Assembly (NCBI RefSeq): GCF_004010195.1
Contig: NC_057717.1
Coordinates: 106,391,127-106,455,126 of the forward strand
Length of the DNA: 64,000 nucleotides
Source of the DNA: Chiloscyllium plagiosum
Lineage: Eukaryota
Direction: 5' to 3'
The number at the start of each line of letters is the position of its first letter. Within the stretch, counting starts at the first letter, position 1. Shown here piece after piece: positions 2,396 through 50,492 of this stretch. The notes under the pieces are model-generated. The model was given only the letters and a program-made list of their open reading frames with translations. It made no database searches and had not been told where the DNA came from. The translations under genes and the position numbers were made by a program.

Positions 2396-2462
2396 TTGTC
2401 ACATAAGAAGTCACAGTGAAGAACTGCAGAAGTCCATGAGGTGAAAAGATCTGGAAGCTCAT
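2396..2462 (-). CDS. Probable signal-peptide exon of ICAM-like paralog A (gene continues left of the window)
   Basis: ATG at 2462; MSFQIFSPHGLLQFFTVTSYVT + A, donor |gtgggt. Same 67-nt length and phase as the B signal exon, preceded by a homologous promoter module. Confidence 0.6.
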
Positions 2463-2544
2463 GTCGCCAGAATATGGATGGGCTCTGCAATCTGTACTCG
2501 ACCTGACTAACTCAGCTCGATGTTAATGAAAATGACCTCTGTCC

Positions 2545-2598
2545 TTTCCCGGAAATTATTTAAAAAACAATGGCAAGAATTCCAGTGGAAAAATTCCA
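2545..2598 (-). promoter_or_regulatory. Paralog A promoter: GAS/STAT element plus two kB-like sites
   Basis: TTTCCCGGAAA at 2545-2555 (perfect GAS), GAATTCC at 2577-2583, GGAAAAATTCC at 2587-2597; 83-135 bp upstream of the ATG. Confidence 0.6.
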
Positions 2599-2674
2599 AC
2601 ATCTTGTTTCAACATTTGATATATTGCCATCTCCCAAATGTGGGAGGCATTCAATTCACAGCAGGCTGAGCCAG

Positions 2675-3085
2675 AGAGTCATAGAGATATACAGCTCGGA
2701 AACAGTCCCCTCGATCCCCCTTTGTCCATGCCGACCAGATATCCCAACCCAGTCTAGAACATAGAACAATGCAGCACAGGACAGGCCCTTCGGCCCACAA
2801 CGTTGTCTAGTCTCACATGCCATCTCCTGACCCATATCCCTCCAAACCCTTCCTATTCATTTACCCATCAAAATGCCTTTTAAATGTTGCAATTGTGCCA
2901 GCCTCCACCACTTCCTCTGGCAGCTCATTCCATACACGTACCACCCTGTGTGAAAAAGTTGCCCCTTAGGTCTCTTTTATATCTTTCCCCTCTCACCCTA
3001 AACCTATGCTCTCTAGTTCTGGACTCCCCCACCCCAGGGAAAAGACTTTGTCTATTTATCCTATCCATGCCCCTCATAATTTTAT
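2675..3085 (-). mobile_element. CR1 LINE 3' end
   Basis: YKIMRGMDR...SRTREHRFRVRGERYKRDLRGNFFTQ plus a ...tatgactct tail. Confidence 0.85.
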
Positions 3086-4850: not shown

Positions 4851-4884
4851 GCATCTTCACTGCTTTACTTTTATGTGTTCATGG

Positions 4885-5884: not shown

Positions 5885-6100
5885 TGTATATTAGACATCA
5901 ACTGTCTTCTTCCTCCTAGAATCTTCTGCTTGACGTATCACAGAACATGCAGTTGTAAAATCCTACTTCTGGATAACTTGGGAAATAGTTATCATATCAA
6001 GTACTGCCCTTTGTTCTGTTAGGATTTATCCTTGATTTATATTCTATAGTAATTGTTGATTCTGGACATGCTGTGCTGCAGTTTATTCTGATGGAGCCCC
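5885..6100 (-). pseudogene. Second, 5'-truncated, decayed D1 exon copy (tandem duplicate)
   Basis: GSIRINCSTACPESTITIEYKSRINPNRTKGST*YDNYFP with stops and a frameshift; keeps the |gtaagt donor. Downstream intron (5521-5604, 5859-5884) matches 6137-6244. Confidence 0.85.
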
Positions 6101-6244: not shown

Positions 6245-6514
6245 TGTACACTGTGACATACTCTTTCACATCCTTTAGCTGAGGATCCAGACATTTCACA
6301 GAACATGCTGGTGTTAAATCTCACTGCTGGGCACTTGGGAAATAGTTATGGTACCAAGTAATGCCCTTTGTTCTAACGAAGTTTACTCCTGCTTTATGTT
6401 CCATATTTATTGTTAGTTTTGGACATGTTGTGCTGCAGTTCATCTCGATGGAACCTCCAAATTCCACGGCTGGGGGGTTTACATCGATTGAAACTTCAAA
6501 TCCAGTTACAGTGG
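6245..6514 (-). pseudogene. ICAM-like paralog B, D1 exon with one premature stop
   Basis: ttggcag| and |gtaagt, 270 nt. NCSTTC...NMEHKAG...FPSAQQ*DLTPACSVKC...TVY; TGA at 6321-6323 replaces the Trp seen in gene D (TAWDIS). Confidence 0.85.
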
Positions 6515-7098: not shown

Positions 7099-7165
7099 CT
7101 GTTATACTGAAAATTAACACGGAGAAGTAAATACCCTCAACCGATGATTTCCTCCTAAAATCCAT
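7099..7165 (-). CDS. ICAM-like paralog B, signal-peptide exon
   Basis: ATG at 7165; MDFRRKSSVEGIYFSVLIFSIT + G, donor |gtgagg, phase 1; joins in frame to the D1 exon (ATVTG/FEVSID). Confidence 0.8.
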
Positions 7166-7270: not shown

Positions 7271-7338
7271 TCCTTTCCGGGACATTATGGAGATATTTAT
7301 TTTAGGCGATGATATGATGAAATTCCAAGAGTAATTCC
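7271..7338 (-). promoter_or_regulatory. Paralog B promoter: degenerate GAS plus two kB-like sites
   Basis: tcctttccgggacattat aligns with A's tcctttcccggaaattat; GAAATTCC at 7319-7326 and AATTCC at 7333-7338 at similar spacing. Confidence 0.5.
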
Positions 7339-9302: not shown

Positions 9303-10270
9303 TCATAAGACATGGGAGTGGAAGTAGGCCAATAGGCTCAAGTCTGCTCTGCCATTCAGTGAGGCCGTGGTTGATCTGATAATCCTCAACTTCACTTTCC
9401 TGCCTTTTCTTCCTAATTCTTGATTCTCTTACTGGTTGAAAATCTGAGTATGTCAGCCTTGAATTCACTTGGTAATCTCTGCACTCAAGAATTCCAGAGA
9501 TTCAGCACTGTTTCTATGTAAATAATATTCAGATTTTCTTATTGCCAAATGCAGAGCCTCACATTTCCTGCCTTACATTACATCTGCTGGGATTTTGCCT
9601 ACTCACAGTGTATTTCCCTGTCTCTAACCATCTGTAGGCTTTTTGTGTCATCCTAACTGCTTGTTTTCTAAGTTATTTTGTGTCATCCACAATAGTACAT
9701 TCAGTCTAATTTCCAAGTAATTAATAGCTACTGTAAATAATTGTGGATCCAGCACAGAGCCTTGTAGCACTCTACTAGTTACAGATTGCCATCTTGAAAA
9801 TGATCCTTTGTCCCAACTCTATCTTCTATTAGTTAGTCAATCCTCATCCATGTTAATATCCTACACTCACCCTCTAGGGGTCTTTATTTATTAAGAAGCC
9901 TAACATGTGGTACTTTATCAAATTATTTTTTAAATCCAAGTATATTATGTTCAATGAATCCCCTTAATGAAATCCTGCTGACTCTGCTTGGTTTCATTAT
10001 GTATTTCAAAATACTCTACTATTACATCCTTTCTTATGAACATCTAACCAATGACAGATGTTAACTAGCCAATAGTTACTGGTTTAAATCTCCCTTTGTT
10101 TTTGAATGAGCATGTTACATTGGCTGTTTTCCAATTCTCTGGATCATTTCCTGGAAGATTACTACCATTGTACCCACCACCTCTGGAGCTACCAGAAGTC
10201 CAGACATCAAGTCACACTCCAATTGGATCTTGAGCAATAGAACTTGGATATATCTTCCATCTAGTCCATT
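9303..10270 (-). mobile_element. Degenerate CR1 LINE (RT to 3' end)
   Basis: Decayed RT motifs and a CR1-type 3' tail on the minus strand. Confidence 0.7.
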
Positions 10271-10734
10271 TTCTAACACTTTAGATTTCATTGAACTCTG
10301 TGGAGAGAAAAGTAAATCTTTATCCAGCAAAAGACTTTGGAAAACCTCTGCATCCTTTAGATGCTTCCTTTGAAGAGAAAGGGGTTATCTTCCCTTTAGA
10401 TAAAAATCTTTGATATTTCTAATCTACCTGATATTCTTCAACACTGACAGCAGCATCCACATCCTGTCTCTTAGTTGTGGTTAAAGTTACAATCTGATCT
10501 CTGGCCTTTTCCTTCTAACTCATTTTTAGACTTATTCTTACAAACTTCATTAAGACCCATGGGTCTCCCTTTCAACCTCCAGCATTCAGAACAAATGTGT
10601 CCCAATTTGTAACAATGGAAACACCTTCCAAATGTTCACCTCCATCCTCAGTACTTTCTATTCTTCTCCAATGAGGAGACCGTGGGGCATTCCCAGTTTT
10701 CCATTCCTTATCTTGGCTACTTGTCTTCCTTTCA

Positions 10735-11560: not shown

Positions 11561-13838
11561 ATCACAGTACATTTCATGACGTTCCACCGGATGATCTGCT
11601 TTTATGTTCAGACTGATTGTATTCCTCAGTACACCAGGGAGAACTTGTCTGCTCTTTTTCAGAATTGAGCCACGGAATCTTTTACATCCACCTGAAAGAA
11701 GAGACAGAGCATCTATTTAACAACTCGCCCAAAATACGGCAACATTGGCAATCTGACCCTCCTCACTACTGTATCAGAGTTTTATATGCTCAAAATCTGA
11801 AAAGAATTTCAATCCACCGCCTTAACAAAGAAGCAAGCATGCTGGAAAGTGACAAAGTTTGATCAACATTTATAGGCAAAGAGACTGGGAAGGACTTCCA
11901 GAGGTCAGGGCCTAGGCTGCTGAAGACAAAGTTGCGATTGATCTAAGGACAATGAAAATCAGGACGCTCATCATACCGGAATTGAAGAAGTATATAATTC
12001 TTGGAAGTTTACAGGGCGGAGGGAGTTTATGGAGATACAGAGAGGAAAGGCATGGAGGCATTTAAACATGATGTGAATTTTAAAATTGAGACTTCACATC
12101 TCGTCTTCATTTCATACATTTGGAAAACTATAGATTACAAAGATAATATTTATCTTACTAAAGCAAACGGTCACAACAGGAATTTATTTTACAGAATAAA
12201 CAAATCTTGTATCTGGCCTTCGTGTCAGTTCGTGGGGAAGAAAGTTGTTCTCATAAAGCTTTGATGATATCAATCTAGTTACCAGAGCTCAGGTGACAAT
12301 CCAGATTTTGAAAAAAATAAAAGAAAATGATCCATACAACATTTCAAAAGCAATCTAAAATGTTGAGAAATGTGCGGAACAAATTGTCATTACAAATATT
12401 ACAATAATAACTGCAAACAATTTTAGTATTGCAATGAGCTGCACTTGTTGGATACAATATCAACTACAGGATCATCGGAATTTCTCTTCAGAACATATCT
12501 CATACTAGTTTGTAATTGTTGTTGTACTACCAAGTTATGGATGATGTTTCTTAAAAGGAACTCCATTCTGATCATTTCCACTGGGGACTTGTGCATTGTT
12601 GTTGGGTTTTGCTTTGTCTAATTTATACTGTCCTCTTTTATGGGCACTGCATTTCCAGTACAAGGCCATCACAGCAATTACCATCTATACTGCTATTCCT
12701 GCAGTCACTAGTATTATCCATCTTAAATCTATGAAAACAAAGAAAGAAAAGATACACAAATCACCAACAGTGCAAGGATATATATTAAATGCAAAATGCC
12801 TGAATATTTCTGAAATCTGCGGACAATAAACACAGATGGAATGCGCCGCGCCGTGTGCTTTATTCAGCTCTTTCATGGCTGCTTTCCTGCTTGTATTCTT
12901 CACCTTCTTTCTTTCTTCCCACATCACACCCCACTCCTTGGCAGTCTGCCCTCAACTCACTGTCAATTCCCTATTTACATTCCGCATGAATTTCACACTG
13001 GTAAGTAAATTTAATGTAATGTTCCATACATATTGATATCAAGATTTATTTTAAGCTGGGTCCAGAATTTTAAGAATTCATAATTCCGATCTCTTACATT
13101 GCTAATAACACAATTAAATCTCCTGTCTTTCTTCTAATTTTCAACCCTAATATTCATTTGTATTTTCCCCAAGACACTGATTTGAGCTGCTGTGTTTGCA
13201 GTACCTCCTTGTACTTTTTCACTGCTTTTCCCTGTTGCTCCCATCACAATAAGAAGTGAAGCCCAGAGACATGTGCTGCACTCACTGATCTGCCAAAACT
13301 CTGCTCCATGGAGTCACAATGTTTGGATTCACAGCCATGAAGTGTCCCACTCCTCCTACCTTGGAGTTATTCCCCAGGCAGGTGGGGCAAACACAGAGCA
13401 GGAGGATGGTGCTTCTACACACAAAGAGGAATACATGCAAGAGACTCTCACTCTGAACCACCCGTACCCAATGTACCAGAGGCCAGTTACAGAGCAGCAT
13501 TGTTAGAGGCAGGCAACAGTTTATCCATTGTCCCATTGTCAGGAAGGGTGCAGTAAAACAGGAGCCCACACTAATAATACCAACTGACCTTTGACCCTGA
13601 TGTCCACTTGCGTCTCATCAATTCCATATTGATTGGTAGCTCTGCATTTATAAATTCCCCCTGATATTTTGCAGTTATATGGGGAGTATGCAGAAATCCA
13701 GAGGGATTAGTTTCAATGCTGTTCCTGAGGTTTACCCACTCTAATGTAGGTGAGGGTCTTCCATTGGAATTTCAGTTGAATGTAATTTCATCATCCTTAG
13801 TGACTTTTACTGGAAAGTCTGACATGGTTTTGTTATCT

Positions 13839-14859
13839 AGGTAAAAACGAGGACTGCAGATTCTGGAAACCTGAGTCTGGATTAGAGTGGTGCCGGAAAA
13901 GCACAGCAGGTCAGGCAGCATCCAAGGAGCACGAAAATCGACGTTTCAGGAAAAGAGGCAGGGAGCCTGCAGGGTGGAGAGATAAATGAGAGGGGTTTGG
14001 GGATGGCGGTGATAGGTCAGAGAGGAGGGTGGGGGGAGGTAGCAAAGAGTACCATGGGTGAATGGGGGTGGGGATGGAGGTGATAAGTCAGCAAGGAGGN
14101 NNNNNNNNNNNNNNNNNNNNNNNNNNNNNNNNNNNNNNNNNNNNNNNNNNNNNNNNNNNNNNNNNNNNNNNNNNNNNNNNNNNNNNNNNNNNNNNNNNNN
14201 NNNNNNNNNNNNNNNNNNNNNNNNNNNNNNNNNNNNNNNNNNNNNNNNNNNNNNNNNNNNNNNNNNNNNNNNNNNNNNNNNNNNNNNNNNNNNNNNNNNN
14301 NNNNNNNNNNNNNNNNNNNNNNNNNNNNNNNNNNNNNNNNNNNNNNNNNNNNNNNNNNNNNNNNNNNNNNNNNNNNNNNNNNNNNNNNNNNNNNNNNNNN
14401 NNNNNNNNNNNNNNNNNNNNNNNNNNNNNNNNNNNNNNNNNNNNNNNNNNNNNNNNNNNNNNNNNNNNNNNNNNNNNNNNNNNNNNNNNNNNNNNNNNNN
14501 NNNNNNNNNNNNNNNNNNNNNNNNNNNNNNNNNNNNNNNNNNNNNNNNNNNNNNNNNNNNNNNNNNNNNNNNNNNNNNNNNNNNNNNNNNNNNNNNNCTC
14601 ATGACCTGTCCTACTTGCCTATCTTCCTTCCCACCTATCCACTCCAACCTCCTCTCTGACCTATCACCTTCATCCCGACTCCCTTTCACCTATTGTACAC
14701 TATGCTACTTTCTCCCCACCCCAACCCCCTCTCATTTATCTCTCCACCCTGCAGGCTTCCTGCCTCTATTCCTGATGTAAGGCTTTTGCCCGAAATGTCG
14801 ATTTTCCTGCTCCTTGGATGCTGCCTGACCTGCTGTGCTTTTCCAACACTACTCTAATC
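13839..14859. mobile_element. Penelope-derived insertion (inverted termini, internal N-gap) splitting the D6 exon of pseudogene C
   Basis: PLE termini in opposite orientation; flanked by catggttttgttatct at 13823-13838 and 14860-14875. Confidence 0.8.
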
Positions 14860-15074
14860 CATGGTTTTGTTATCTTCTGAGATGGTTGTGATTGTGGCTT
14901 GTGGTTTATCTGGAAGAGAGAAGAAAAATCACTGATACAGCTCCCCAACACGGCTCCAATTAACAGGATGCCCAAACTTAGTTACATATTGTGCTGGCAT
15001 CTATCTTCCAACAATCATTTCAGAACAGGTGAATCTCCGCAGTCGTGTTACAGCCTTGAACCTGCTCATAGTCA

Positions 15075-31789: not shown

Positions 31790-32106
31790 TAGTCAAAAAA
31801 CTGGAGGCGCCTCCAGGCCATAGTGCACTTTGAGAAGGAACTGTTAATGCCAATCATGGTGTGCAATTGACAAATTTGTCTGATATTTTTGACAATTATC
31901 CACAGGATAAGGGCATTACAGGCTGGACCAGCACTTATTACCCATCTAGTCATAAAACTGGAGTCATCTGCAGGAGGCCATAGTGCACTTTGAGAAGTAA
32001 CTGTTAATGCCAATCGTGGTGTGCAATTGACAAATTTGTCTGATATTTTTGACAATTATCCACAGGATAAGGGCATTACAGGCTGGACCAGCACTTATTA
32101 CCCATC
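31790..32106. repeat. Tandem duplication of ~160 bp
   Basis: 31790-31946 approximately equals 31947-32106. Confidence 0.9.
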
Positions 32107-33795: not shown

Positions 33796-34627
33796 GGACT
33801 TTGTTAAGTGTTTATAGGAAAACATCCTTATTCAACATATGCATGTATCTATTAGGGAAAGAGCAATATTTGATCTCCTGTTAGGAAACAAAGCAAGTGA
33901 CTGAGGTGTCAGTGGAGGAGCACTTTGAAGCAAGTGATCATAATTTTATTTGTCTTAAAATAATTATAAAAAAGTATAGAACTGATCAAAAAATTAAAGC
34001 TCTAAGTTAGGGCAAGGCCAATGTTGATGGTATTATGTTCCTGTTCGTGCAAAGGGCAAGGCTGGTAGGTGTAGGGAATGCTGGATGACTAGAGAAATTG
34101 AGTCTCTGGTTAGAAAAAGGAGGTATATGTCGGGTATAGACAGCTGGGATTGAGTGAATCCCTAGACTAGTATCAGGGCAGTAGGAGGGAAATCAGGAAG
34201 GCAAAAAAGGGACAAGTGATAGCTTTGGCAAATGTCTTGGAGAGAGTTAACATTATAGAAGAGGATGTGCTGGAGGTCTTAAAATTCAAATAGGCAGATA
34301 AATCTGTCAGACCTGATCAAGTGTATCACAGAACTTTGTGGGAAGCCACGGCACAGATTACAGGGATAGAATCCCTACAGTCTGGATATTTGTATCATCA
34401 ATAGGGTGGGCACTGGAAGACTGGAGTTTGGCTAATGTGGTGACATTATTTAAGAATAGGATGTAAGGAAAAAGTGGGGAATTATAGACTGATGAGCCTT
34501 ACGTCAGTGGGGGGGCAAGTTATTGGAGGAGATTCTGAGGAACAGGATCTACATGCATTTGGAAAAGCAAAGACTGATTAGGGATCGACAACATGGCTTG
34601 GTGCATGGGAAATAGTGTCTCACTAAT
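33796..34627 (+). mobile_element. CR1 LINE fragment (subfamily of 15075/43816)
   Basis: DFVKC...DLLLGNK...; ggctggtaggtgtagggaatgctggatgact shared with ~44250. Confidence 0.85.
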
Positions 34628-36880
34628 TACATAGAACATAGATCAGTACAGCACAGTACAGGCCCTTCAGCCCTCGATGTTGTGCTGACCTGGAAGATCA
34701 AACTAACCTACATTCCCTTCATTCCACTATTATCCATGTGCCTATCCAAGAGTCGCTTAGATGTCCCGAATGTATCTGACACTACTACCACTGCTGGCAG
34801 TGCATTCTACACACACACCACTCTCTGTGTAAAGAACTACCTCTGACATCTCCTCTAAACCTTCCTCCAAACACCTTACAATTATGTCCTTCATGATATT
34901 CATTTCCGCTCTAGAAAAAATTCTTGGACTATTCACTCTATCTATACCTCTCATCATCTTGTACACCTCTGTCAAGTCATCTCTCATCCTTCTTTGCTCC
35001 AATGAGAAAAACCCTTGCTCCCTCAACCTTTCTTCATAAGACATGCTCTCCAGTCCAGGCAGCATCCTGGTAAATCTTCTCTGCACTCTCTATAAAGCTT
35101 CCGATAACGAGGCAACCAGAACTGAACACAATATTCCAAGTGTGGTCTAACCAGGGCTCTACAGAGCTGCAGCACAACTTTACAGCTCTTAAACTCAATT
35201 CCCCTGCTAATGAAAGGCAACATACCGTGTAACTTCTTAACAACCCTATCAATTTGGGTGACAAATATGAGGGATCTATGGACATGGACCCCAAGATTGC
35301 TCTGTTCCTCTACACTGCCAAGAATCCTGCCTTTAATCCTATATTTTGTATTCAAATTCAAACTTCCAAAATGAATCATTTCACATTTTTCAGGTTGAAC
35401 TCCATCTGCCACTTCTCAGCCCAGCTCTGCATCCTGTCAATGTCCCGTTGCAACTACACCAGCCCTCCAAACTATCAACCACTCCACAAACGGTCATGCC
35501 ATTGTCAAACTTATTAACCCACCCTTCTACTTCCTCACCAAGTCATTTCTAAAAATCACAAAGAGCAGAGGCCACAGAACAGATCCCTATGGAACATCAC
35601 TGGTCACCGAGCTCCAGGCTGAATACTTTCCATCTACTACCACCCTCTGTCCTCTATTGGCCAGCCAATTCTGTGTCCAGACAGGAAATATCCCTGTAAC
35701 CTATGCTTCCTTACTTTCTGAATGCCCCTACCATGAGGTACCTTATCAAATGCTTTGCTAAAATCCATTTACATCATATCCATTACTCTACCTTCATCAA
35801 TGTTTTTTGTCATATCCTTCAACAAAGCTTGTGAGGCATGACCCGCAACTCACAAAGCCATGCTATCTCTAATGAAACTATGGTTTTCCAAGTAATCATC
35901 AGTCCTGTCTCTCAGAATCTCTCCAATAATTTGCCCACTACAGACATAAGACTGACTGGTCTGTAATTCCCAGAATTATCCCTATTCGCTTTTGTAAACA
36001 AGGGAATAACATTTGCCACCCTCCAATCATCTGCTACTACTCCAGTGGACAGTGAGGACATAGATCATCACCAAAGGCACAGCAATCTCTTCCCTTGCTC
36101 CCTGTAGTAATCTTAGGTATATCCCATCTGGCCCATCATTTCAGCACATCCTCTTTCTTAACATCAAACTGTTGAAGCATATCAGCCTGCTTTAAGCTGT
36201 CCTCACAAAGGTAAAAGTCCCTCTCAGTAGTGATTACTGAAGCAAAGTAATCATGAAGGACCTCCCCTACCTCCTCCGACTCCAGGCACAAGGTCCCTCC
36301 ACTATCCCTGATCTACTTTGACTCTGGCCATCCTCTTGTTCCTCACATAAGTGTAGAATTCCTTAGGGTTTTCCTTAATCCAATCGCTAAAGCATTTTCA
36401 TGCCCCCATCTAGCTCTCATAAATCCATTCTTCAGTTCTTTCCTGGCTATCTCGTAACTCTCTGGAGCCCTGTCTGATCCTTGCCTCCTCAACCTTAAGT
36501 AAGCTTCATTATTTCTCTCGATTAGATCTTCCACATTTCTTGTCATCCAAGGTTCCTTCACCCTACCATCCCTTTCTTGCCTCAGTGGGACAAACCTGTC
36601 CAGCATTATCAGCAAGTGCTCCCTAAACAACCTCCACATTTCTGTTGTGCATTTTTCTGTTCCCAATTTAGACACAGCAGTTCCAGGGTAATAGTACTGT
36701 AATTCCCCCTCTCCTAGTTAAATACTTTCCCAAACCATCTAATCCTATCCCTCTCCATGACGATAGTAAAAGTTTCTCACTATCATCGAAATGCTCTCCC
36801 ACCAAGAGATTTGACACCTGACCTGGTTCCTAGCCAACTACCAAATCCAATATGGCCTCCCCTCTAGCTGGCCTACCTAC
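34628..36880 (-). mobile_element. CR1 LINE ORF2 to 3' end
   Basis: LVRPHLEYCVQFW, QRRFTRMLPGL, (ttctatg)n-like tail. Confidence 0.92.
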
Positions 36881-36882
36881 AC

Positions 36883-37458
36883 GGTAAAAACAATGACTGC
36901 AGATGCTGGAAACCAGATTCTGGATTAGTGGTGCTGGAAGAGCACAGCAGTTCAGGCAGCATCCAAGGAGCAGTGAAATTGACGTTTCGGGCAAAAGCCC
37001 TTCATCAGGAATTCCTGATCTAATCTAATCTAATCTTTCGGAGCACTGCTTCTTTGTCAGGCAGCTAGTGGGGCAGGATTATAGGACACAGAACTTATAG
37101 TGAACGATCAAGCTGTCATAAACCGATGCAATATTTTGAACAAACCTAGATGGCTGTTAAGTCTTTAATCACTTAAAATGGGTTGCAGGTTTCAATTCAT
37201 TAATATGTAAATCCCAGAACTTCTTTCAAGTCACTATCATGAGATAACTTAAGGTGTTATAAAAAAGGTGACATCTCAGCTCAGACAATGCATTAAAGGT
37301 GTGAGGTTAGAGTCTTGTCTGTATTCCAACCTTGAATCAGACTGGTTCTATTTCCAAAGTAGGAATTTATAAAATTTCACATGGACTGACTGCCTACAGC
37401 TTGTGTGTTTTTTGAACAATATGGAATATATCTGCAAATACAATTCTGCAAATGCAAA
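36883..37458 (-). mobile_element. Stacked PLE terminal fragments (two families)
   Basis: Match the termini seen at 369-491 and 20365-21055. Confidence 0.8.
36981..37008 (-). ncRNA. Minimal hammerhead ribozyme motif (second PLE family)
   Basis: Minus strand CTGATGA-A-GGGC TTTT GCCC-GAAA-CGTC. Confidence 0.7.
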
Positions 37459-40400
37459 GACGTGGGTTTCACAGGGGCAGGAATGGTTGCTTGATGTTCA
37501 AGGGTTTAGAATGTTTAAAAAGAACAGGGAGGGTGGAAAACAAGGAGGGGGTGGAGCATTGCTAATCCGAGAATGCATCACAGCTACAGAAACAAAGGTT
37601 GTTGAGGAAGGTCTGTCTACTGAGTCGTATGGGTGGAAGTTAGGAACAGCAAGGGAGCAGCCACCACATTGGGGTTTTCTACAGACCCCCAATAGCAGTA
37701 GGGAGATTGAAGAACACATAGGCGGGCAGATTCTAGAAAAATGCAGAGGTAGCAGGGTTGTAGTTATGGGTGATTTCAACTTTCCCAATATCGACTGGAA
37801 CCTCTTCAGTGCAGATAGTTTGGATGGAGCCGTTTTTGTCAGGTGTGTTCAGGAGGGTTTCCTTACTCAGTATGTAGACAGACCGATGAGGGGAGAGGTT
37901 ATTTTGGATTTGGTGCTCGGTACTGAGCCAGGACAGGTGTCAGATCTCGCGGTGGGAGAAACTTTAGTGACAGTGATCACAACTGCCTAAAATTTAACAT
38001 AGCCTTAGAGATGGAAAGGAGCAGTTACCGAGGGAAGATATTTAATTGGGGAAAAGGAAATTATGATGCTATCAGACAGGAGTTGGGAAGTACGGACTGG
38101 GAGCAATTGTTCCACAGAAAGGACACAGCAGACATGTGGAGACTGTTTAAGGAGCAGTTGTTGCGAGTGATGCACACATTTATTCCTCTGAGACAGATAA
38201 GAAGGGGTAAGATTAAGGAACCTTGGATGATGAGAACACAGGAACTTCTCGTCAAAAGGAAGAAGGCAGCTTACAAAGGTGGAGGAAGAAAGGATCCAAC
38301 ATAGCTCTAGAGGAGTACAGGCTTGCAAGAAAGGAGCTCATAAATGGACTGAGGAGAGCCAGGAGGGGGCATGAAAAAGGCTTGGCAAATAGGATTAGGG
38401 AGAACCCAAAGGCATTTTACTCATACGTGAGGAATAAGAGAATGATCAGGGAGAAGGTAGGGCCGATCAGGGATAGCGGAGGGAACTTGTGCATGGAGTC
38501 TGAGCAGATAGGGGAAGCCCTAAATGAGTATTTTGCTTCAGTTTTCTCCAAGGAAAGGGAGCTTGTTGTGAATGAGAACTTTGAGGAGCTAGGATACAGG
38601 CTTGACCAGATCAAGGTTGATGAAGTTGATGTGCTGGAAATTTTGGAAAACATTAACATTGATAAGTTCCCAGAGCCAGATTTATCCTAGGTTGCTTCAG
38701 GAAGCAAGAAAGGAGGTTGCTAAGCCGATGGCGAAGATCTTTGCCTCCTCACTCTCCAAGGAAGTCGTGCCAGAGGATTGGAAGGAGGCGAATGTTGTTT
38801 CTCTTTTCAAGAAGAGTAATAGCGAAATCCCTGGCAATTACAGACCAGTCAGTCTTATGTCTTTGGTCAGCAAAGTTTTGGAAAGAATTCTGAGGGATAG
38901 GATCTGAGACTATTTGGCAAAGCATAGCGTGATTAAAGGCAGTCAGCATGGCTTTGTGAGGGGCAGGTGAAAGTGAGGTCTGCAGATGCTGGAGATCAGA
39001 GCTGAAAATTTGTTGCTGGAAAAGCGCAGCAGGTCAGGCAGCATCCAGGGAACAGGAGAATCGACGTTTCGGGCATAAGCCCTGGTCATGCCTCACAAAT
39101 CTTATTAAGTTCTTCGAGGAGGTGACAAGACAGATCGACGAAGGTCGAACAGTGGATGTGGTGTATATGGACTTCAGCAAGGTATTTGATAAGTTCCCCA
39201 TGGTAGGCTCATTCATAAAGTCAGGAAGTATGGGATACAGGGAGATTTGGCTATCTGGATTCAGAATTGGCTGGCTGACAGACAGCAGAGAGTGGTTGTA
39301 GATGGAAAGTATTCTGCCTGGAGGTCAGTGTTGAGTGGGGTTCCGCAGGGCTCTGTTCTTGAGCCTCTGCTTTTACTAGTTTTTATAAATGACTTGGACG
39401 AGGTAGTTGAGGGGTGGGTTACCTCCCTGACCTATCACCTCCATCCCCACCCCCATTCACCTATTGTACTCTATGCTACTTTTTCCCCACCCTCCTCTCA
39501 TTTATCTCTCCACTCTGCAGGCACTCTGCCTCTATGACTGATGAAGGGCTTTTGCCCGAAACGTCGATTTTCCTGCTCCTCAGATGCTGCCTGAACTGCT
39601 ATGCTTTTCCAGCACCACTCTAATCGAGAACCTGTTGAACTATAACCTGGTGTTGGGTGATTCATAAGACTGATAAAAGCAGTCTAAATGGACTTCAGCA
39701 AAGTGTTCAACAAGGTTTCACAATTGGCTTGAAGGTAGGAGACAGAACATGGTGGTGAAGAGTTGTTTTTCAGACTGGAGGGCTATGATCAGCAGTGTGC
39801 CACAGGGATCAGTGCTGGATTCACAGGGTTTTGTCATTTATATAGAAGTTTTGGATCTGAATATAGCAAGTATGGTTGGTGAGTTTGTAGATGACACCAG
39901 AATTGGTTGCGTAGTGGACAGTGAATAAGATTATCTCAGAGTACAATGGGACCTTGGTCAGATAGGCCAATCGGCTGAGAAGTGGCAGATAGAGTTTAAG
40001 TTGGATAAATGTGAGGTATTGCATTTTGGCAAGCTAAGCAAGGGCATGAGTTATACAATTAATGATAGGGAGTACTGCCAAACAAAGAGACCTAGAGGTG
40101 GAGATGCATAGTCACTCGAAGTGTAATACATAGGTAGACAGGGTGGTGAAGAAGGAGTTTAGTATGCTTGTCTTCATTGGTCAGAACACTGAGTATAGGA
40201 GTTGGATGCCATGTTGTGGCTGTACAGGACATTGGTGAGGCCACTTTTAGAATACTGTTTACAATTCTGGTTATCCATCTATAGGAAGGATGTTGTTAAA
40301 CTTGAGAGGGTGCAGAAAAATTTACAAGGATGTTGCCGGGATTGGAGGGTTTGAGCTATAGGCAGAGACACAATACCATTGGAGGCTGAAGGTGATCTTG

Positions 40401-40772
40401 TAGAGGTTTATAAAATCCTAAGTGGCATAGATAGGGTGAATAGCCAAGGTCTTTTTCCCTGGGTAGGGGTGTCCAAAACTAGAGGGCATAGGTTTAAGGT
40501 GAAAGAGGAAAGATTTAAAAAGGACCTGAGGGATCACTTTTTCAAGCAGATGGTGGTGCGTGCATGGAACAAGCTGCCAGAGGAAACGATGGAGGTGGAT
40601 ACAATTCCAACATTTAAAAGGCTTCTGGATGGATATATGAATAGGAAGGGATCAGAGGAGATATGGACAAAATGGTGGCAAATGGGATTAGGTCAGATTG
40701 GGATGTCTAGTTGGTGAGGATGAGTGGACTGGAGGGTCTTTTTTCATGCTGTATGAATCTATGACTCTATGA
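37459..40772 (+). mobile_element. CR1 LINE ORF2 segments with nested PLE fragments (38967-39083, ~39420-39665)
   Basis: [26 protein letters not shown], tail tctatgactctatga. Confidence 0.92.
39538..39565 (+). ncRNA. Minimal hammerhead ribozyme motif (second PLE family)
   Basis: CTGATGA-A-GGGC TTTT GCCC-GAAA-CGTC. Confidence 0.7.
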
Positions 40773-42210
40773 GTTCCCAAGATAATTAAGAAGATTTTTA
40801 AAATATAAACACTTGAATCATGTTAGATTCCAAGGCTATGGGCTAACTGCCAGATAATGGATAAGAATAAATAGCTGTCTGATGATCGACATGGACACAA
40901 TGGGTCCAGTAGCCCCTTTCCCTGCTGTACAACTCTATGGTTCTAGATGGATGTTAAGTGGTGATGAGCTCAACAGGAACGGATAATTTTTTTGTTATGG
41001 TTCTTCGGGAAAAAACATTTTGGTTGTTGGCTAGAAACCTGTGGTGAATTCAGAAAAGCAAATAAGCCTGGATGGCAAAATGACCACAGTTTAGATAATT
41101 TTAATGTGAGGAGTATAATAAATAGGACAGACCAGCTGAGGGCAGTATGATACCATACATGGCTTAAAGAGGGTCAGGAAGGATTTCTGGCTCCAGAACT
41201 TTCCGACACGATAGAGAGGGATTAATCAGAAAACTGGGTAGCAATTGTGGTTGAAGAAACAATCATATTTTTAAGGAGGGATGACAAGTTGGAAGCATCA
41301 TCATATGAAGCCACATGGATTGCACTAAGTACCATAAAAAGGGCAGCTAAACTCTTGGGAATGTACAACAGACTTCGAGAGGGAGACAGAAGAACAAAGA
41401 TGTTGGCAAACTCGCAGAAGTGCAAAAACAACAAAGTAGTAATAGTTTGTTTTTTTTTACCTACCCCAATATTAACTGAAATAGTTTTAATGTGAAAAGA
41501 ATGGAGGGAACTGAATTCATTGAGTGCATTCATAGAGTCATAGAGATGTACAGCATGGAAACAGATCCTTCGGTCAAACCCGTCCATGCTGACCTGTTCA
41601 GAGGCATTCTTTCAATATTTGCTCTGGGAGTTGTAGTTTTTAAAATCAAAAACAATACTGTGCTCACTACAGAGATCACAGATACAGTTGATTAAAGCAA
41701 GTAAATGTGAATTGTCGAAGAAAAGATTCTTTGAAGTAGTCATGCTGAAGAATCCACACAAAATACACTGGGGTAAGTCCCCCAGCCCACTCCGCTCTGT
41801 GCTATGACAACAGGTTGAAAGGCAACAAGGCTGGCAATATAATGGGCAAGGTATCAGAATGGGAGGCCAAAATCCTCCTGTTACCATGACATATTGTCAG
41901 TAGCAGGAGAGGGCAGCCATTTAAATGGCTCATTTAAAGACCACTTCCTGCCCTCAGGCTTCCTGCAGCTTCCAGGGGAGGGTGGCTCTTCTTAAATGGT
42001 ACTGCATGGTCCATGCATTGAACTGCACATGTGTGGACTTTGGAAGTTGCTGTCTGAATACTCTTCAATGAAGGTAAGCTCTGATTACCTCATTTCTACG
42101 AAATGTGTCAATATGTTTTATTTTGTTTTTTGTTTTTACCTCTGGAAGTTACTCTGAATACGAAATAGATTCAGTGCCAATGTATTGACTGTGATTTGTT
42201 TACTTGGCAG

Positions 42211-42483
42211 TAAATGTGGCAGGACTTGACATTTGGATCGACGTAACCCCTCAAGTTCTGGAATTTGGAGACTCATTGAAGGCAAACTGCAGTACATCAT
42301 GTGTGGATTCAAACCTATTAATTGTCTTGGAATATAAATCAGGGCTAAGTCCTCAGAGAAAACGTGAAAGTACATGGATATCAGACTTCTTCCCAAATGT
42401 CACAGCATGGGATATTTCTGTCCCTTGTGTTGTGAGATGTAAGAATGAACACAACTCAGCCAAGAAAGTGGTCCCTGTTTACA
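42211..42483 (+). CDS. ICAM/VCAM-like gene D, N-terminal Ig domain (D1) exon
   Basis: ttggcag| acceptor and |gtaagt donor; 273 nt, phase 1-1, open. VNVAGLDIWIDVTPQVLEFGDSLKANCSTSC...IVLEYKSG...WDISVPCVVRC...VY shows the CxxxC...CxxxC four-cysteine ICAM N-terminal domain pattern. Confidence 0.9.
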
Positions 42484-42764
42484 GTAAGTGAAAATTATTG
42501 TAACAAAATAATTGTGAGTGATAGAGATTCCCTACTGGCTCAGTAAATATCTATTTTCCGTGGTTTAAATACTGGAATGCCGAAATAAATTAAGGCAAAT
42601 GGGATGTTTTAACACACATTGAAACTCAGCTAAGTGATATAGCCTAGTCATCTGCTGAAACCAGTAACCACACCAATTCCCTTAGAATAAGTTTGTTTCC
42701 ATCAGGTTTCACCTTCTTCCTGCCTTGTGTCCATTTTAAGCCTTTGCATTCCACAATTACGATA

Positions 42765-42955
42765 TGGAGTTGCCAGTGTTGGACTGGGATGGACAATGTC
42801 AGAAGTCGATTGACACCAGGTTATAGTCCAACAGGTTTATTTGAAATCACAAGCTTTTGGGGTGTTGCCCCTTCACTTCATCTGATGAAGCAGCAATGCT
42901 CCAAAAGCTTGTGGGTTTAAATAAACCTGTTGGACTATAACCTGGTGTCGTCTGA
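42765..42955. mobile_element. PLE-derived short inverted-repeat insertion
   Basis: acaccaggttatagtccaacaggtttattt ... aaataaacctgttggactataacctggtgt. Confidence 0.8.
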
Positions 42956-43349
42956 CATTCTGCAATTAGTTATTTTCCTCAGAGTAGGAACTTCAAAATG
43001 AAATTCATTATCTCAAAAAACAACTACTGCCTGCTTTAAAACAAACACACAAATCCTTCACTCTCTATCTCTGTAATCTCCTCCAGCCCAATAAACCTCT
43101 GATCTCTGCACTGTTCTAATTCAGGCATTTGGTTCATCTCGAATTTTATCACCACTATTGCAAACTGTGCCTTCAATTGCCAAGTTGTTAGGCTCTGGAA
43201 TCACTCCCTTAACCTCAATCTTTCTCTCTCTCCTCCTGTAAGGCACTCTCTAGATCATACCCTCTTTCAATCATCTGCCCCAATACCTCCTCATGTAACT
43301 TGGTGTTAACCATTCATGGGGAAATTGAAGCTCCAGTATTTATAGTCAA

Positions 43350-46300
43350 TGTAACAGTAGTGATTGTAACAAGGTCAGCCAAATGGACACTATACAATAT
43401 AAGTTCACTGGCTGGGGCTGTTAATCAGGAGTATTCCGTTCATTCTGAGAGCTGGCTCTGAGAGATCCAGATCAGTGTCAAAGACTATCCACATGTAAAT
43501 AAAGGGTGACTCCACGATGGCTTACTGGCTTATGTGAAGTAATTTCAGTGGCAATGAGAAGAAATCCTGAAGAAATTCACTCACAATAGTTATCTCTGAA
43601 TTGGCATAAGCATTTCTGATATTGTGTCATTATTTAGGAAGCTTGACTCATTTGATCCTGCCATCAAAGACTGGGCCCTGTATGCGGAAAGAATGCATTA
43701 TTGCTTTCTGGGCAAATGATATTGGGGCAGATGAAAAGCAATGAGTAATACTCTTGACAGTTCGTAGATCTACAGCTTTTTTGGTTATTAGGTACCTAAC
43801 TTTTCTTGAAGCATCAGATTTTAACTTTCCAAACATCACTTGGGACTGCCATCGTGTTAAAGGTTTAGATGGAGAGGAATTTCTTAAGCGTGTACAAGAC
43901 AATTTTCTGATTCAGTTTGTGGACGTACCTACTAGAGAAGGTGTAAAACTTGACCTACTCTTGGGAAATAAGACAGAGCAGGTGACTGAGGTGTCAGTGG
44001 GGGAGACTTTGGGGCCAGTGAACATAATTCTTTTCGCTTTAAAATAGTGATGGAAAAGGATAGACCAGATCTAAAAGTTGAAGTTCTAAATTGGAGAAAG
44101 GCCAATTTTGACGACATTAGGCAAGAACTTTCGAAAGCTGATTGGAGGCAGATGTTCACAGGTAAAGGGACAGCTGGAAAATGGGAAGCCTTCAGAAATG
44201 AGATAACAAGAATCCAGAGAAAGTATATTCCTGTCAGGGTGAAAGAGAAGGCTGGTAGGTATAGGGAATGCTGGATGACTAAAGAAATTTAGGGTTTGGT
44301 TAAGAAAAAGAAGGAAGCATATGTCAGGTATAGACAGGAGAGATCGAGTGAATCCTTAGAAGAGTATAAAGGAAGTAGGAATATACTTAAGAGGAAATCA
44401 GGAGGGCAAAACGGGGACATGAGATAGCTTTGGCATATAGAATTAAGGAGAATCCAAAGGGCTTTTACAAATATATTAAGGACAAAAGGGTAACCAGGGA
44501 GAGAATAGGGCCCCTCAAAGATCAGCAAGGCGGCTTTTGTGTGGAGCCACAGAAAATGGGGAGATACTAAATGAATACTTTGCACCAGTATTTACTGTGG
44601 AAAAGGATATGGAAAATATAGACTTTAGGGAAAAGGATGGTGACATCGTGAAAAATGTCCAGATTACAGAGGAGGAAGTGTTGGATGCCTTGAAATGGTT
44701 AAAGGTGGATTAATCCCCAGGACCTGATCAGGTGTACCTGAGAACACTGTGGGAAGCTAGAGAAGTCATTGCTGAGCCTCTTGCTGAGATATTTGTATCA
44801 TCGATAGTCACAGGTGAGGTGCCGGAAGACTGGAGGTTGGCTAAAGTGGTGCCATTGTTTAAGAAGGGCAGTAAAGACAAGCCAGGGAACTATAGACCAG
44901 TGAGCCTGACCTCTGTATTGGACAAGTTCCTGGAGAGAATCCTGAGGGACAGGATGTACATGTATTTGGAAAGGCAAGGACTGATTTGGGATAGTCAACA
45001 TGGCTTTGTGCGTGGGAAATCATATCTCACAACTTGATTGAGTTTTTTGAAGAGGTAACAAAGAAGATTGATGAGGGCAGAGCAGTAGATGTGATCTCTA
45101 TGGACTTCAGTAAGGCGTTCGACAAAGTTCCACGTGGGACACTGATTAGCAAGGTTAGATCTCATGGAATACAGGGAGAACTAGCCATTTGAATACAGAA
45201 CTGGCTCAAAGCTGGAAGACAGAGGGTGGAAGAGGAGGGTTGTTTTTCAGACTGGAGGCCTGTGACCAGTGGAGTGCCACAAGGATTGGTGCTGGGCCCT
45301 CTACTTTTTGTCATTTACATAAATGATTTGGATGCAAGCATAAAAGGTACAGTTAGAAAGTTTGCAGATGACACCAAAATTGGAGGTGTAGTGGACAGTG
45401 AAGAGGGTTACCTCAGATTACAACAGGATCTGGACCAGATGGGCCAATGGAATGAGAAGTGGCAGATGGAGTTTAATTCAGATAAATGTGAGGTGCTGCA
45501 TTTTGGGAAAGCAAATCTTAGCAGGACTTATACTTATAAAGATTTACAAAATTATGAGGGGCATAGATAGGATAAATAGACAAAGTCTTTTCCCTGGGGT
45601 TGGGGAGTCCAGAACTCGAGGGCATAGGTTTAGGGTGAGAGGGGAAAGATATAAAGGAGACTTAAGGGGCAACGTTTTCACGCAGAGGGTGGTACCTGTA
45701 TGGAATGAGCTGCCAGAGGATGTGGAGGCTGGTACAATTGCAACATCTAAGAGGCATTTGGATCTGTATCAGGATTTTTGACTAGTTAAGATGACTGGCA
45801 GAGGCTTGTGACTTTGGTTAATCCTTAATGAGATGCTGAGAGACCATTTGGTCTGTGGGATTAATGATGTGAGCATGCAAAAACACTTAGTAACTGAAGC
45901 TCAGCTGGAGTTTAAACAAGCAAAACCAATGGCTTTATCATTGGAAAATGCAGTAAGCGGAGTACCTAAGTTGCAAGGTATTCTGATGGAAATGGCACCT
46001 TTGCCAGTCCAATTGAACATGTGAGTGAAGGCAGTTACAAAGCATCACTCAAGTCATATCCTAACAGCTGACACCACAGCAAAACCCCAAAACAAACTCA
46101 AGCCTTTGCCAAACAGTTAAACTTTTCTCGAGGCTCCAGGCTGAGCCATTGTAGTTGTTATTGGTATGCATACCTGAGAGAGCAAAAGAATCCCACTGGG
46201 TCTGAATTAAGTAACAGAGCTCATAGGCCAATACCTAGAAGTATGCACACCAAGGGATGTCCACCTACATCTGATTTGGAACCATTAAATTGGTTAGCAA

Positions 46301-49300
46301 CATTCAAAACAAAACCAATCAAAATAAATGTCTGGTTAAATGGTCACCTGGTTCTTTTGGAGGTCGATACTAGCACAGCTATTTTAATGTTTGCAGAGCC
46401 GGTCTTTAACAAAATTCACTCTCGACTCCGGGTTTGCACAAGACCTCAGTTTGACTGAGAGCCTTTCCCAGAGAACCTTTACAGATAAAAGTTACAACTT
46501 TGTTTCCGGTCTCTTATAAGAAGAAGCTGGTTCAGTTACCACTGATTGTAGTGAAAGGGTCAGGCCAAGCTTGATGGGCAAAATTAGTTAAGAAAGACTC
46601 AACTTGACTGACTCAACATTTTTCAGTTAGAAATGGCTGTGTCAGTGAAATAAGTCCTAATTAAATACCCGGATGTTTATCAGGAAGGTCTAGGTAGTAT
46701 CAAAGGAGCCAAGGCCTCCTTGCATGAGGACCAGGAAGCAATTCCATGATTCTGCAAGGCTTGCCCAGTGCTATTTGCCTTACTTGCAAAAGTAGAGGCA
46801 GAAATGAGGAGGTTGCAAAACAAAGTAATCATCAAACCAATCCAATTTGTGGACTGGGCAGCCCAGTAATAGCTGAAGCCCAGTAATTGTGAAGCTTGAC
46901 AGATTGGTTTACGTTTGTGGGTGAACATTTTAAACAAATGGTGAACTGCGTTTAGTAGCAGGATAAATACCCAATCCCTCACACTAAGGATTTATATGCA
47001 AAGCCAGCAGGGGTGAACATGGACATGAGCCATGCGTATTTGCAAGTGAGGTCAGACGACGACTGTCAGAAGCATGTTACAGTTATTATCCATAATGGTT
47101 TGTACCAATGAATGACACTGCCATTTGGGGTATCATCAGCCGGTGCCATTTCTCAGTGGACGATGGAGAACATTTTAAAGGGTTTACCCAAATCCCCATC
47201 TACCAAGACGATTTGCTAATAAAAGGGAAGACTAATAAGAAGCACTTTGAGAACTTGGATATAGTCCTTAGACATTTCTCCCAGGTGGGCGTATGCCTTG
47301 GAAGGGAAGAATGTTGGTTTCAGGCATCCCAAGTGACCTCGTGGGCAAGACCGGGTAACACTTGGAAGCTGAAGTGAGGGTGATCAAAGATGCCCCAGCT
47401 CCCAACTCAGTATCAGAACTTAGGTCTTTCCTTGGGCTGGTGAACTATTCCGGATAGTTCATACATAATGTGGCCTCCATCCTAGCACCTTTGAAATCAA
47501 CTCTTTAAAAAGAGTTAGCCTTGGAAATGGTCATGCAGCCAAGCCATAGTTTTCAGGGAAGTCAAAAAACAGCTATCATCCTGTAAGTCATATTAAGATT
47601 CTAAACGGGATCTGGTACTGACATGCGATGCCCTGATGGAGAATGAAGGTTTGGCAGTGATGTTTGGAGTCAGGATGTTCCACCAATACTTTGACAGACA
47701 TAAATTTGTAATAATAACAGACCACAAACCCTTCTAGGTCTACTTAAAGAGGACAAGATGTGGAGGTGGTGGTGTTGGACTGGGGAGGAATACGTTCAAA
47801 ATTGCACAACACCAGGTTGTAGTCCCAACAGATTTATTTGGATGTACTTGCTTTCAGAGTGCTGCCCCTTATAGCTACAAATTATGATCCTGCCCCACTA
47901 GTTACCTGCTTAAAGAGGACAAGATGTGGAGGTGTCAGTATTGGACTGGGAGGACTACATTAAAAATCACACAACACCAGTTTATAGTCCAATAGGGTTA
48001 TTTGGATGTACTTGCTTTCAGAGTGCTGCCCCTTATAGCTACAAATTATGATCCTGCCCCACTAGTTACCTGAAAGCTAGTACTTCCAAATAAAGCTGTT
48101 GGACTATAAACTGGTGTTGTGTGATTTTTAACTGAAGAGGACAAGGCAGTGCTGCTCACAGCTTCACACTGAATTCAGCGGTGGGCTCTAGTTATAAGTC
48201 TGTACAATTACAGGTTGGAACACTGTCTGGGAGGCCAAGGAGCAAATGTAGTTGCACTGAACCGCCTCCTGCTGGAAGGTACACCACCGGTGGGACCACT
48301 ACAAGAAGAGTCCACTCTGGTATTAAACTTTTTGGACACACTTCCAGTCACAGCTGACAATATCAGACTCTGGACAAAGATCCAGTCCTGGCAAAACTGA
48401 ACCAGCTGGTGGTGATGGGGGAGGAAGCCAAAGGGCCATCACAATCAGAATTGAAATGTTTCTGGACCTAGAGAGATCAGATCACAGTCGAGGACAGCAT
48501 TTTATTATGGGGAGCAAGAGTGGTTGTTCGTAGCAAGGGTCAGCACCAAGATACTGACTGAACTCCACAGGGGTGTACAAGGGTTTCCAAAATGAAGACA
48601 TTGATGAGAAGTTATTGGATTGGAGGATTGGATACAGACAAAGCTGCATTGGTGGGGCAATACACACAAGGACAAAAATCACCAAAAGCACTCCCCACAT
48701 TTGTGGAAATGGTTGGGTAAACACTGGATTCGGTTACACTTTGACTATGCAGCTCCTTTCATGGGCTCAATGTCCTTAGTCTTTTTGGATATCCACTCAA
48801 AATGGCTGGATATGTGTAGAGTTAATTTGTCTTACACATGGATGATGACAGAGTACTGCAAATATTTTACAATACGTGGACTGTTCGAGATGTTGGTCAC
48901 AGATAACAGACTATCATTTCAAGCAGGGGACTTGACTATTTCCTAAAGCCGAATGATATGCATCACATAAGACAGCTCTGAGCCATTCCATCATCCAATG
49001 GTCGGGCAGAAAAACCATTTCAAATTTTGTAGGCAGGCTAAAAGAAATAGCCTACAGCTTCACTCGATACCAAACTGTCCCAGTTCCTGTTTGACTATCG
49101 ACCCATCCCTCATGCAACTACAGGGATAGCTCCAGCAGAGTTGCTAATGGGTAGAAGACTCCACAACAGGTTAAACCTGATCTTCCTAGTCTTGAGGGGA
49201 GGGTGAAATGGCATCAGAAACATCAATGCTGGACACAATGCTCCACTAAATGAGAGAGACAGTTTACTTTAGGGCTCAAAGTTTGGTGTAGGAACCGTGG

Positions 49301-50046
49301 GAATGGCCTTGAATGCGCTGGAGGCACAGTCAATGTAAGGTCAGGTCCAGTGATGTCTAAGGTTTGGATAGGTGCAACAGTCCTGAACAAGTACATGGAT
49401 CATATGAAAGCTGCAAACATTGCAGGAGCAAAATGTGCCCTGCTCTTCGCTGCCTTTCTGACTGTTCAAAAACTCATGGGGTCTCTGTCTCCGGTAAGCA
49501 TTTAAGGTACTACAGAATCTGAGGTGGATGTCACTGTCTCAATGCCTTTGCCACCTAAAGAGGAGAATAAAGAGGGAGGGATGTAATAATTGTAATGAGG
49601 TCAGCCAGGTGGACATCATAGAAACTGAAACAACTGCAGATGGTGTAAATCAGAAAAAAAATCAAAATTGCTGGAAAAGCTCAGCAAGTCTTGCAGCATC
49701 TGTGGAGAGAAATCAGAGTTAATATTTCCTGTCAAATGACCCTTCCTCAGAACAGGGAAAGGGTCACTTGACCCCAAACATTAGGTCTGATTTGTCTCCA
49801 CAGATGCTGCCTGACCTGCTGAGTTTTTCCAGCAATCTTGATTTTTGTTTCTGGGTATCATAGAATGAGTTCCCTGATTAGGCTCTTTATCTGGTCCAAT
49901 CAGGGAGCCGTGGCTGACAGGTATAAACAGGAGTGTCAGAGGTTCTGATCACTCTGAGAGCTGGCCCTGACGGAGATGGATTAGTCTCCATGTGTAAATA
50001 AAGGGTGACTTGGTGACAGGATACCGGCCTCTGTTGAAATATTTTA
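43350..50046 (+). mobile_element. Degenerate Gypsy/Ty3 LTR retrotransposon in the D1-D2 intron
   Basis: LTRs 43350-43547 and 49582-50046 (shared gtaaataaagggtgact, ctgagagctggc); PBS-like gtggcaatgag; PPT 49567-49580; gag (EMLRDHLVCGIND), protease (LEVDTSTA), RT/RNase H and integrase (HFDYAAPFMG) remnants. Confidence 0.9.
43816..45762 (+). mobile_element. CR1 LINE nested in the Gypsy gag region
   Basis: DFNFPNITW...NYRPVSLTS...GVPQG...KFADDTK. Confidence 0.93.
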
Positions 50047-50177
50047 CTAACCTTTTGTCGAATGTGTACACACACTTACATCTCTTATGTATCTGAGTAA
50101 ATGTGTGGGGAAATGGAACATGGTCCTCAGGTACACTATTTCAGTGAAACCTGTTAACTGTGATTCTCCTTTAACAG

Positions 50178-50492
50178 ATCGAGAGATAAGCATTACAGTA
50201 CTTCCTGAAGTACTGGAGATTAACAGAACATATCGTCTGGAGTGCATTGGCCCAAGAGTCTATCCAAACAACAAACTCATTCTCACATGGCTGAGAGGGA
50301 GTGAGATTGTCCAGAGAGATTCCACAGGTGAACTAGGTCTTCCGGATGAAGATAAAAGGTTGAGAAATGTCTTCAATTTCGTTGCGAGTCGATCAGATGA
50401 TGGACAGGAGTACACCTGCTTGGCTGAAGTGGACTTGGACTCTAATACCACAAAGTCAATCACAAACTCTTCTGTCACACTGCAAACTTACG
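50178..50492 (+). CDS. ICAM/VCAM-like gene D, Ig domain 2 exon
   Basis: ttaacag| and |gtgagt; 315 nt, phase 1-1, open. YRLECIGPRVYPNNKLILTWLRG...SRSDDGQEYTCLAEVDL...TLQTY is typical of ICAM/VCAM D2. Confidence 0.9.

Follow-up and report, generated by a model that had tools for sequence, protein, structure and literature searches.

The question raised by this locus is to which genes its scattered immunoglobulin (Ig) domain exons belong, and how these genes came to be so alike in one domain and so different in another. The window, by which is meant the whole analysed stretch of 64,000 nucleotides of Chiloscyllium plagiosum DNA (NC_057717.1, positions 106,391,127 to 106,455,126 of the forward strand), was read in a preliminary description as an expanded cluster of at least four paralogous ICAM-like units (A, B, C and D) of a six-domain receptor family under fast birth-and-death evolution. 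The exons are genuine, and their sequences place them in the ICAM/VCAM subfamily. The window is probably part of the tandem ICAM cluster of sharks in scrambled order; it contains the intact exons of a six-Ig protein together with two broken partial copies, and the near-identical second Ig domain (D2) of the paralogs is likely the product of repeated gene conversion or unequal exchange within each lineage. Gene order and splicing at the locus are deduced from the sequence.

The intact exons number eight: those of the signal peptide (2396-2462, minus strand; unit A of the preliminary description), of D1 (42211-42483, plus strand; with four Cys and an integrin-type Glu), of D2 (50178-50492, plus strand; the domain homogenised among paralogs), of D3 (31362-31655, minus strand; Pfam ICAM1_3_5_D2, 1.5e-7), of D4 (30306-30593, minus strand), of the I-set domains D5 (23806-24051, minus strand; missing from some public isoform models) and D6 (23140-23448, minus strand), and of the transmembrane segment (TM) with the cytoplasmic tail (22019-22254, minus strand). 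All seven junctions are in phase 1 with GT-AG ends, and the assembled model of 675 amino acids runs without an internal stop. It has the architecture of a type I membrane protein, with one phase-1 exon per Ig domain, 16 N-x-S/T sites and two CxxxC pairs in D1 (Cys 49, 53, 95 and 99). A 21-bp tandem repeat inside the D6 exon (23375-23425) gives this domain seven extra residues; it is found in the C. plagiosum and H. ocellatum proteins, and neither in C. punctatum nor in the pseudo-copy C.

The signal exon was first taken for the start of a fourth paralog, and unit D for a gene complete except for just such an exon. The two belong together. The closest D1 orthologs are C. punctatum P0001 (96% identical) and H. 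ocellatum P0002 (92%), both named ICAM5-like in the automatic gene models from which all proteins of our family comparisons were taken. The N-termini of proteins carrying this class of D1 (class A, see below) match exon A at 20/22 positions in P0001, 19/22 in P0002 and 17/22 in P0010 of Stegostoma; therefore exon A, D1 and D2 are assigned to one gene type, and unit A is the exon that D1 and D2 lacked rather than a paralog of its own. No signal exon for D1 was found within the block that carries it or to the right of this block in the window.

The ownership of the exons from D3 to TM is less clear. Compared with the public C. plagiosum model P0004, the window agrees at 5/22 positions in the signal peptide, 39/91 in D1, 101/105 in D2 and 457/457 from D3 to TM (78/78 in the TM and tail exon alone), and D2 differs significantly from the identical remainder (Fisher p 0.0012). 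The signal exon, D1 and D2 of P0004 itself are absent from the window. Hence unit D, although its exons are intact, may be a chimera joining exons of two paralogs. It is slightly the more probable that D3-TM are the exons of a neighbouring class-E paralog, the 20-kb block then coming from the left of the window; almost as plausibly they would come from gene A itself or be a collapsed mixture of the two paralogs, in which case the public model P0004 is the chimera. Similarity to classes A and E points both ways: D3-D5 are slightly nearer to class E (in H. ocellatum 265/276 identical for class E versus 258/276 for class A), whereas the long tail end is commoner in class A (5/8 class-A rows versus 3/17 class-E rows).

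Six N gaps interrupt the window. Two of them, exactly 500 N each, flank a block of exactly 20,000 bp (33796-53795, without assigned strand). Scaffolding cuts yield exact-size pieces between fixed-size gaps, and the block is for this reason read as a scaffolding error, likely a fragment both misplaced and misoriented. D1 and D2 lie within it on the plus strand; the remaining Ig-type exons are on the minus strand. Flipping the block in situ brings all exons into one orientation, as had been foreseen, but it leaves the signal exon downstream of the stop codon by ~20 kb and does not on its own mend the locus. Both block ends are retroelement sequence, and no unique neighbour matching them was found within the window. 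In addition, positions 1-583 are an exact 583-bp repeat of 1550-2132; this repeat touches the left window end, falls in the would-be intron 1 of gene A and is probably a false duplication. Together with the exact 20,000-bp piece between fixed-size gaps, it makes the local assembly suspect.

Units B and C are decayed partial gene copies, in agreement with the preliminary description. B is 5'-only and has two D1 exons. It consists of a signal exon (7099-7165, minus strand; 21/23 identical to the N-terminus of P0008), a D1 exon (6245-6514, minus strand) with an in-frame TGA at 6321-6323, which matches the intact C. punctatum P0008 at 80.6%, and, by sequence comparison, the remnant of a second D1 exon (5885-6098, minus strand) with its 5' part absent, a stop and a frameshift. 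No D2 follows B in the 3.6 kb ahead of the next promoter. C comprises D5, D6 and TM only, with frameshifts, stops and an insertion; sequence comparison delimits a D5 pseudo-exon with deletions and stops (19928-20142, minus strand) and a TM/tail pseudo-exon with a stop within the TM segment (12535-12728, minus strand), and between them lies a D6 pseudo-exon (13589-14909, minus strand) split by a ~1-kb insertion, which has a 16-bp target-site duplication and spans the gap 14100-14597. Falsely duplicated haplotypes, against which the preliminary description had cautioned, do not account for these units, since nucleotide identity between C and the intact copy is 76-85%, and the D1 of B is 43% identical to the intact D1 in amino acids. 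The tail of C is a mosaic, scoring best with P0008 and the D-type tails and resembling Stegostoma P0019 in its distal part; C was also considered as the 3' half of B, for which this mosaic gives no clear match. In its juxtamembrane part C shares a Cys with the intact C. plagiosum tail, the residue being Tyr in C. punctatum and H. ocellatum; this is possibly a short conversion tract.

The membership of the genes in the ICAM side of the family is made likely by several comparisons. Searching with P0001 gave 60 proteins; the 55 that are named come from 18 species of sharks and rays, and their public labels are mixed (ICAM1/2/3/4/5-like, VCAM1-like, hemicentin-like). ICAM_N is the sole Pfam family matched by D1 (2.2e-7). 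Against PDB, a profile of D1-D4 gave ICAM-5 (1e-18), ICAM-2 (1.7e-17), ICAM-1 (3.7e-15) and VCAM-1 (5.4e-10). The whole protein matches ICAM-5 over residues 30-415 and ICAM-1 over residues 37-494, each in one collinear stretch. Neither CEACAM nor Siglec, the grouping that the preliminary description had set against its own, occurs among the 44 matches of this profile; a CEACAM or Siglec with an N-terminal V-set was rejected, as D1 matches ICAM_N only and the likeness to CEA is confined to D5-D6. Four Cys and one Glu are conserved without exception (63/63) in the distinct D1 sequences of at least 78 amino acids, shorter ones and the sole teleost row having been left out. The Glu is aligned to E34 of ICAM-1 and E37 of ICAM-3, which are reported as the residues binding alphaL's metal-ion-dependent adhesion site (PMC4237329). 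In a Foldseek comparison of the D1 structure model (predicted local distance difference test score 91.8) rows 1-9 are ICAM chains. The fold Z-scores are 11.6-11.3 for ICAM-5/2/3 (root-mean-square deviation (rmsd) 2.0-2.1, 84-85 residues aligned), 10.7 for VCAM-1 (rmsd 2.3, 84 aligned) and 9.9 for MAdCAM1.

A D1-D2 tree was built without outgroup from 57 rows (10 of the 63 shark and ray units and 47 of 139 representatives), the bony rows being mostly labelled by motif, with ten looked up and nine of those in the tree. Its rows from cartilaginous fish, among them the chimaera, come together in a single group (100/99), the Asp-type VCAM1 group is separate (100/100), and the bony ICAM-type rows split off at 96/94. 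On these sequence comparisons the shark genes are most likely ICAM-side co-orthologs, not ICAM5. As they make up one separate group without orthology to any single human ICAM, 'ICAM5-like' and 'VCAM1-like' are to be regarded as best-hit names. Mammalian ICAM5 has nine Ig domains; a direct ICAM5 ortholog was rejected, since mammalian ICAM5 (P0219) nests with the mammal-type ICAMs away from the sharks and six domains are present here. On the ICAM side of the same tree, the teleost proteins P0095, P0101, P0109, P0132 and similar ones, with repeated ICAM-type D1-D2 units of which most have the Glu, form one group; one of them is named hemicentin-1.

Alternatively, the proteins might resemble VCAM and MAdCAM as ligands for alpha-4 integrins, or form a branch peculiar to sharks that binds something other than an integrin, for instance a homophilic partner or a pathogen. 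VCAM1 and MAdCAM1 share the four-Cys D1 fold and use an Asp in the loop after D1 strand C for alpha-4 integrins; the shark D1 has a Glu at the ICAM position, 8-10 residues past the second Cys in 63/63, and lacks the Asp-x-Pro loop motif present in 11 VCAM-type rows (no row was identified as MAdCAM1). The ICAM E-values are 5 to 9 orders better than that of VCAM-1, and Pfam C2-set matches gar VCAM1 and 0/4 cartilaginous-fish proteins. This makes the alternative improbable. Nevertheless, a number of observations weigh against the ICAM-side placement. Many public models are named VCAM1-like. By Z-score the ICAM and VCAM-1 folds do not separate, and bony ICAM-like proteins make up 20 of the 51 rows in the alignment behind the D1 model. 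The ICAM_N profile matches gar VCAM1 (4.6e-16) as well as the shark group, the HMMER alignments to ICAM-2 and ICAM-5 put the Glu two columns off, and the best PDB match of the whole protein is CEA, via D5-D6 only. In the tree the shark group lies between VCAM1 and the bony ICAMs, so that its side hinges on the root. Finally, no Asp-type cartilaginous-fish VCAM1 appears among 120 listed of 145 matches of a word-limited search, a weak point which is no evidence of absence.

The tandem cluster is supported: ~4-5 genes per species can be counted from accessions in carpet sharks and Heterodontus, and same-species paralogs lie mostly on a contig of one identical size. The supposed expansion beyond mammals is not borne out at 4-5 genes per shark genome, and a fixed number of six domains does not hold either, the public shark and ray models having 3 to 11 Ig domains. 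Some of these models (P0003, P0005, P0009, P0015 and P0080) show D1-D2 pairs that recur, or as many as six D6 copies in tandem; either the exons are truly duplicated or adjacent genes have been fused.

The relations among the paralogs depend on the domain considered. The D1 and D2 trees of 63 matched D1-D2 units conflict in topology. In the D1 tree class G (15 rows, 100/98) extends over Heptranchias, Pristiophorus, Heterodontus and carpet, mackerel and ground sharks (to Mustelus), class A (7 rows, 94/98) reaches from Heterodontus to Mustelus, and class E is the looser remainder, which includes the ortholog of B. D2 clusters by species or family and not by D1 class. For an identity test set of 31 shark units, from which rays, internal repeats and near-copies were excluded, median identities were taken for pairs of different class in one lineage (n=57) and for pairs of one class from different lineages (n=134). 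They are 0.38 and 0.56, respectively, for D1, and 0.93 and 0.82 for D2. On the D2 tree, lineage has to change 7 times, as few as 8 lineages allow, and class 16 times. Approximately unbiased tests reject D2 clades for class G (p 1.5e-4) and class A (p 4e-56), and likewise reject Heterodontus and Stegostoma as D1 clades. Diagnostic D2 columns were found for species (7/9) and not for classes (0/3). The pattern recurs in 7/8 shark lineages, whose genomes come from separate projects; for Lamniformes, all rows used are class G.

The D2 copies are separate exons, as they differ in 30/31 same-species cross-class pairs. D3-D5 are also 96-100% alike (species medians) among the shark paralogs that possess them, and class G retains its own D6 (~45% identical). 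Since purifying selection alone would not yield lineage-specific shared changes, we infer gene conversion or unequal exchange. D1 would escape it by being too diverged or under selection. It should be said against this explanation that the classes were named from the D1 tree, which renders the class count for D1 circular, that homogenisation of D2 is weaker in rays (within-species medians 0.58-0.88), and that the evidence is at the protein level, synonymous sites and introns lying outside the data. The larger D2 tree was viewed before the 31-unit tests.

Birth-and-death does occur, as in B and C, mainly inside class E, the D1s of which expanded separately in carpet sharks, carcharhiniforms and rays. 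Together with the variable domain number this suits the original proposal of four young paralogs of a six-domain family with fast turnover, and for turnover within class E that proposal is fair. It is contradicted for classes A and G, which cross shark orders with the support given above. Young duplicates, moreover, predict agreeing D1 and D2 trees, and the trees disagree; of the four units, A is no more than the signal exon that goes with D1 and D2. With D1 classes shared across orders and D2 homogenised within lineages, fast birth-and-death is unlikely to be the main process.

A protocadherin-like locus, in which promoter-signal-D1 cassettes (A, B and others) splice to shared downstream exons, would explain why B is 5'-only. 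A and B stand in tandem with homologous promoters and without a D2 in the intervening 3.6 kb, and C. punctatum P0001 equals P0008 throughout D3-D4. However, shared exons do not agree with a D2 that differs in nearly all same-species pairs, nor with the separate D6 of class G, and P0001 and P0008 differ also in D2, D6 and tail, which makes such a locus very unlikely. Collapsed assemblies or chimeras among the gene models might also have produced the D2 similarity artificially; in favour of this are the visible mis-assembly of the window and several public models that look like neighbouring-gene fusions (P0003, P0009 and P0080). The recurrence of the pattern in independently sequenced lineages with small fixed differences between copies, as well as the position of the window's D1-D2 exon pair on a single gap-free stretch, render this explanation highly improbable. 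Repeated conversion or unequal exchange thus stays the preferred reading of D2.

Glu-dependent binding to leukocyte beta-2 integrins is predicted from the sequence with good probability, and the leukocyte-adhesion role suggested in the preliminary description is supported as probable. The D1 Glu would coordinate the metal of the beta-2 integrin I domain, D2-D6 would form a glycosylated stalk, and the basic tail would link to actin adaptors. Candidate promoter motifs are located upstream of both signal exons on the minus strand (2545-2597 in gene A, 7274-7326 in unit B). In A these are a palindrome (2545-2555) which we take to be a gamma-activated site (GAS)/STAT-like element and a presumed kB-like site (2587-2597); in B, a degenerate, presumably GAS-like site and a kB-like core. 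The two motifs are 43 nt apart in both cases (-135/-92 in A, -161/-118 in B). The placing is striking, as the sole two matches to the GAS pattern in the window are those upstream of signal exons A and B. In the human ICAM1 gene, STAT and kB sites close to the start codon follow the same order, with an interferon-gamma element from -116 to -36 and a kB site from -187 to -178 (PMC10215618). Interferon-gamma and NF-kB would then induce the shark gene, which is a lead offered by candidate motifs. As to possible partners, alphaE and alphaL are attributed to cartilaginous fish in a review (PMC8359198), and myeloid cells of nurse shark spleen are reported to express alphaM, alphaX and 'Icam3' (PMC10529500). 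Two facts tell against this functional picture: by count, two GAS matches in 64 kb are not above chance (18/100 shuffles), and the study of elephant shark reports alphaE only, no alphaL subunit having been found (PMC4237329).

The shark cluster resembles that of human ICAM1/ICAM3/ICAM4/ICAM5 (19p13.2) plus ICAM2 in its tandem arrangement and similar gene number, in having one exon per Ig domain, in the four-Cys D1 with the integrin-binding Glu, and in the collinearity of D1-D4 with ICAM-1 and ICAM-5. Unlike the human genes, the shark ones constitute one separate group and have two I-set domains after D4, a longer tail with a Gly-x-Tyr motif and a D2 homogenised to 89-100%. Between human ICAM-1 and ICAM-3, identity rises from 38% in D1 to 77% in D2 (PMC10886500), a hint that the contrast of D1 and D2 may recur. 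Regional gene conversion is described in the protocadherin clusters of teleosts, namely fugu (PMC1852091) and in CEACAM families (PMC7042247), where, similarly, distal recognition domains are divergent and proximal ectodomains homogenised within a lineage; in sharks, by contrast, whole single-domain exons of separate genes are homogenised. A BLAST-based study dates ICAM1 to bony fish (PMC7916592), whereas the Glu-type group of sharks and chimaera argues for an older ICAM lineage. No published study of the shark ICAM cluster and no work joining ICAM1, ICAM3 and gene conversion was found in the literature searched, from which subscription papers were mostly absent. The gene family is known and the genes are already automatically annotated, so that the surprise is moderate. 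It is conceivable, if doubtful, that the three D1 classes predate the split of the shark orders as distinct integrin or pathogen specificities while conversion rewrites D2, that D2-limited conversion is a recurring rule of ICAM clusters in jawed vertebrates, and that the kB-plus-GAS module is ancestral, so that the common ancestor of jawed vertebrates would already have had cytokine-inducible ICAM expression.

As for the rest of the window, no recognisable flanking gene was seen in its 64 kb, and the open reading frames 137-454, 2206-2511 and 10118-10384 have no Pfam match. Two diverged copies of one element (46175-49184 and 60025-62703, ~68% identical, in opposite orientation) are broken and contain protease, reverse transcriptase and integrase-like fragments. 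Intronic tandem duplications are present at 31815-32106 (160 bp, 98%) and 47743-48072 (164 bp, 90%).

Copy counts drawn from this C. plagiosum assembly are unreliable. If the present interpretation is true, the ICAM1/2/3/4/5-like, VCAM1-like and hemicentin-like genes of many sharks would be one ICAM-side group, and trees of whole proteins or of D2 would mislead on the orthology of shark ICAM genes. The cluster would serve as a clear example from nature of gene conversion confined to a domain, in a family of immune adhesion genes.

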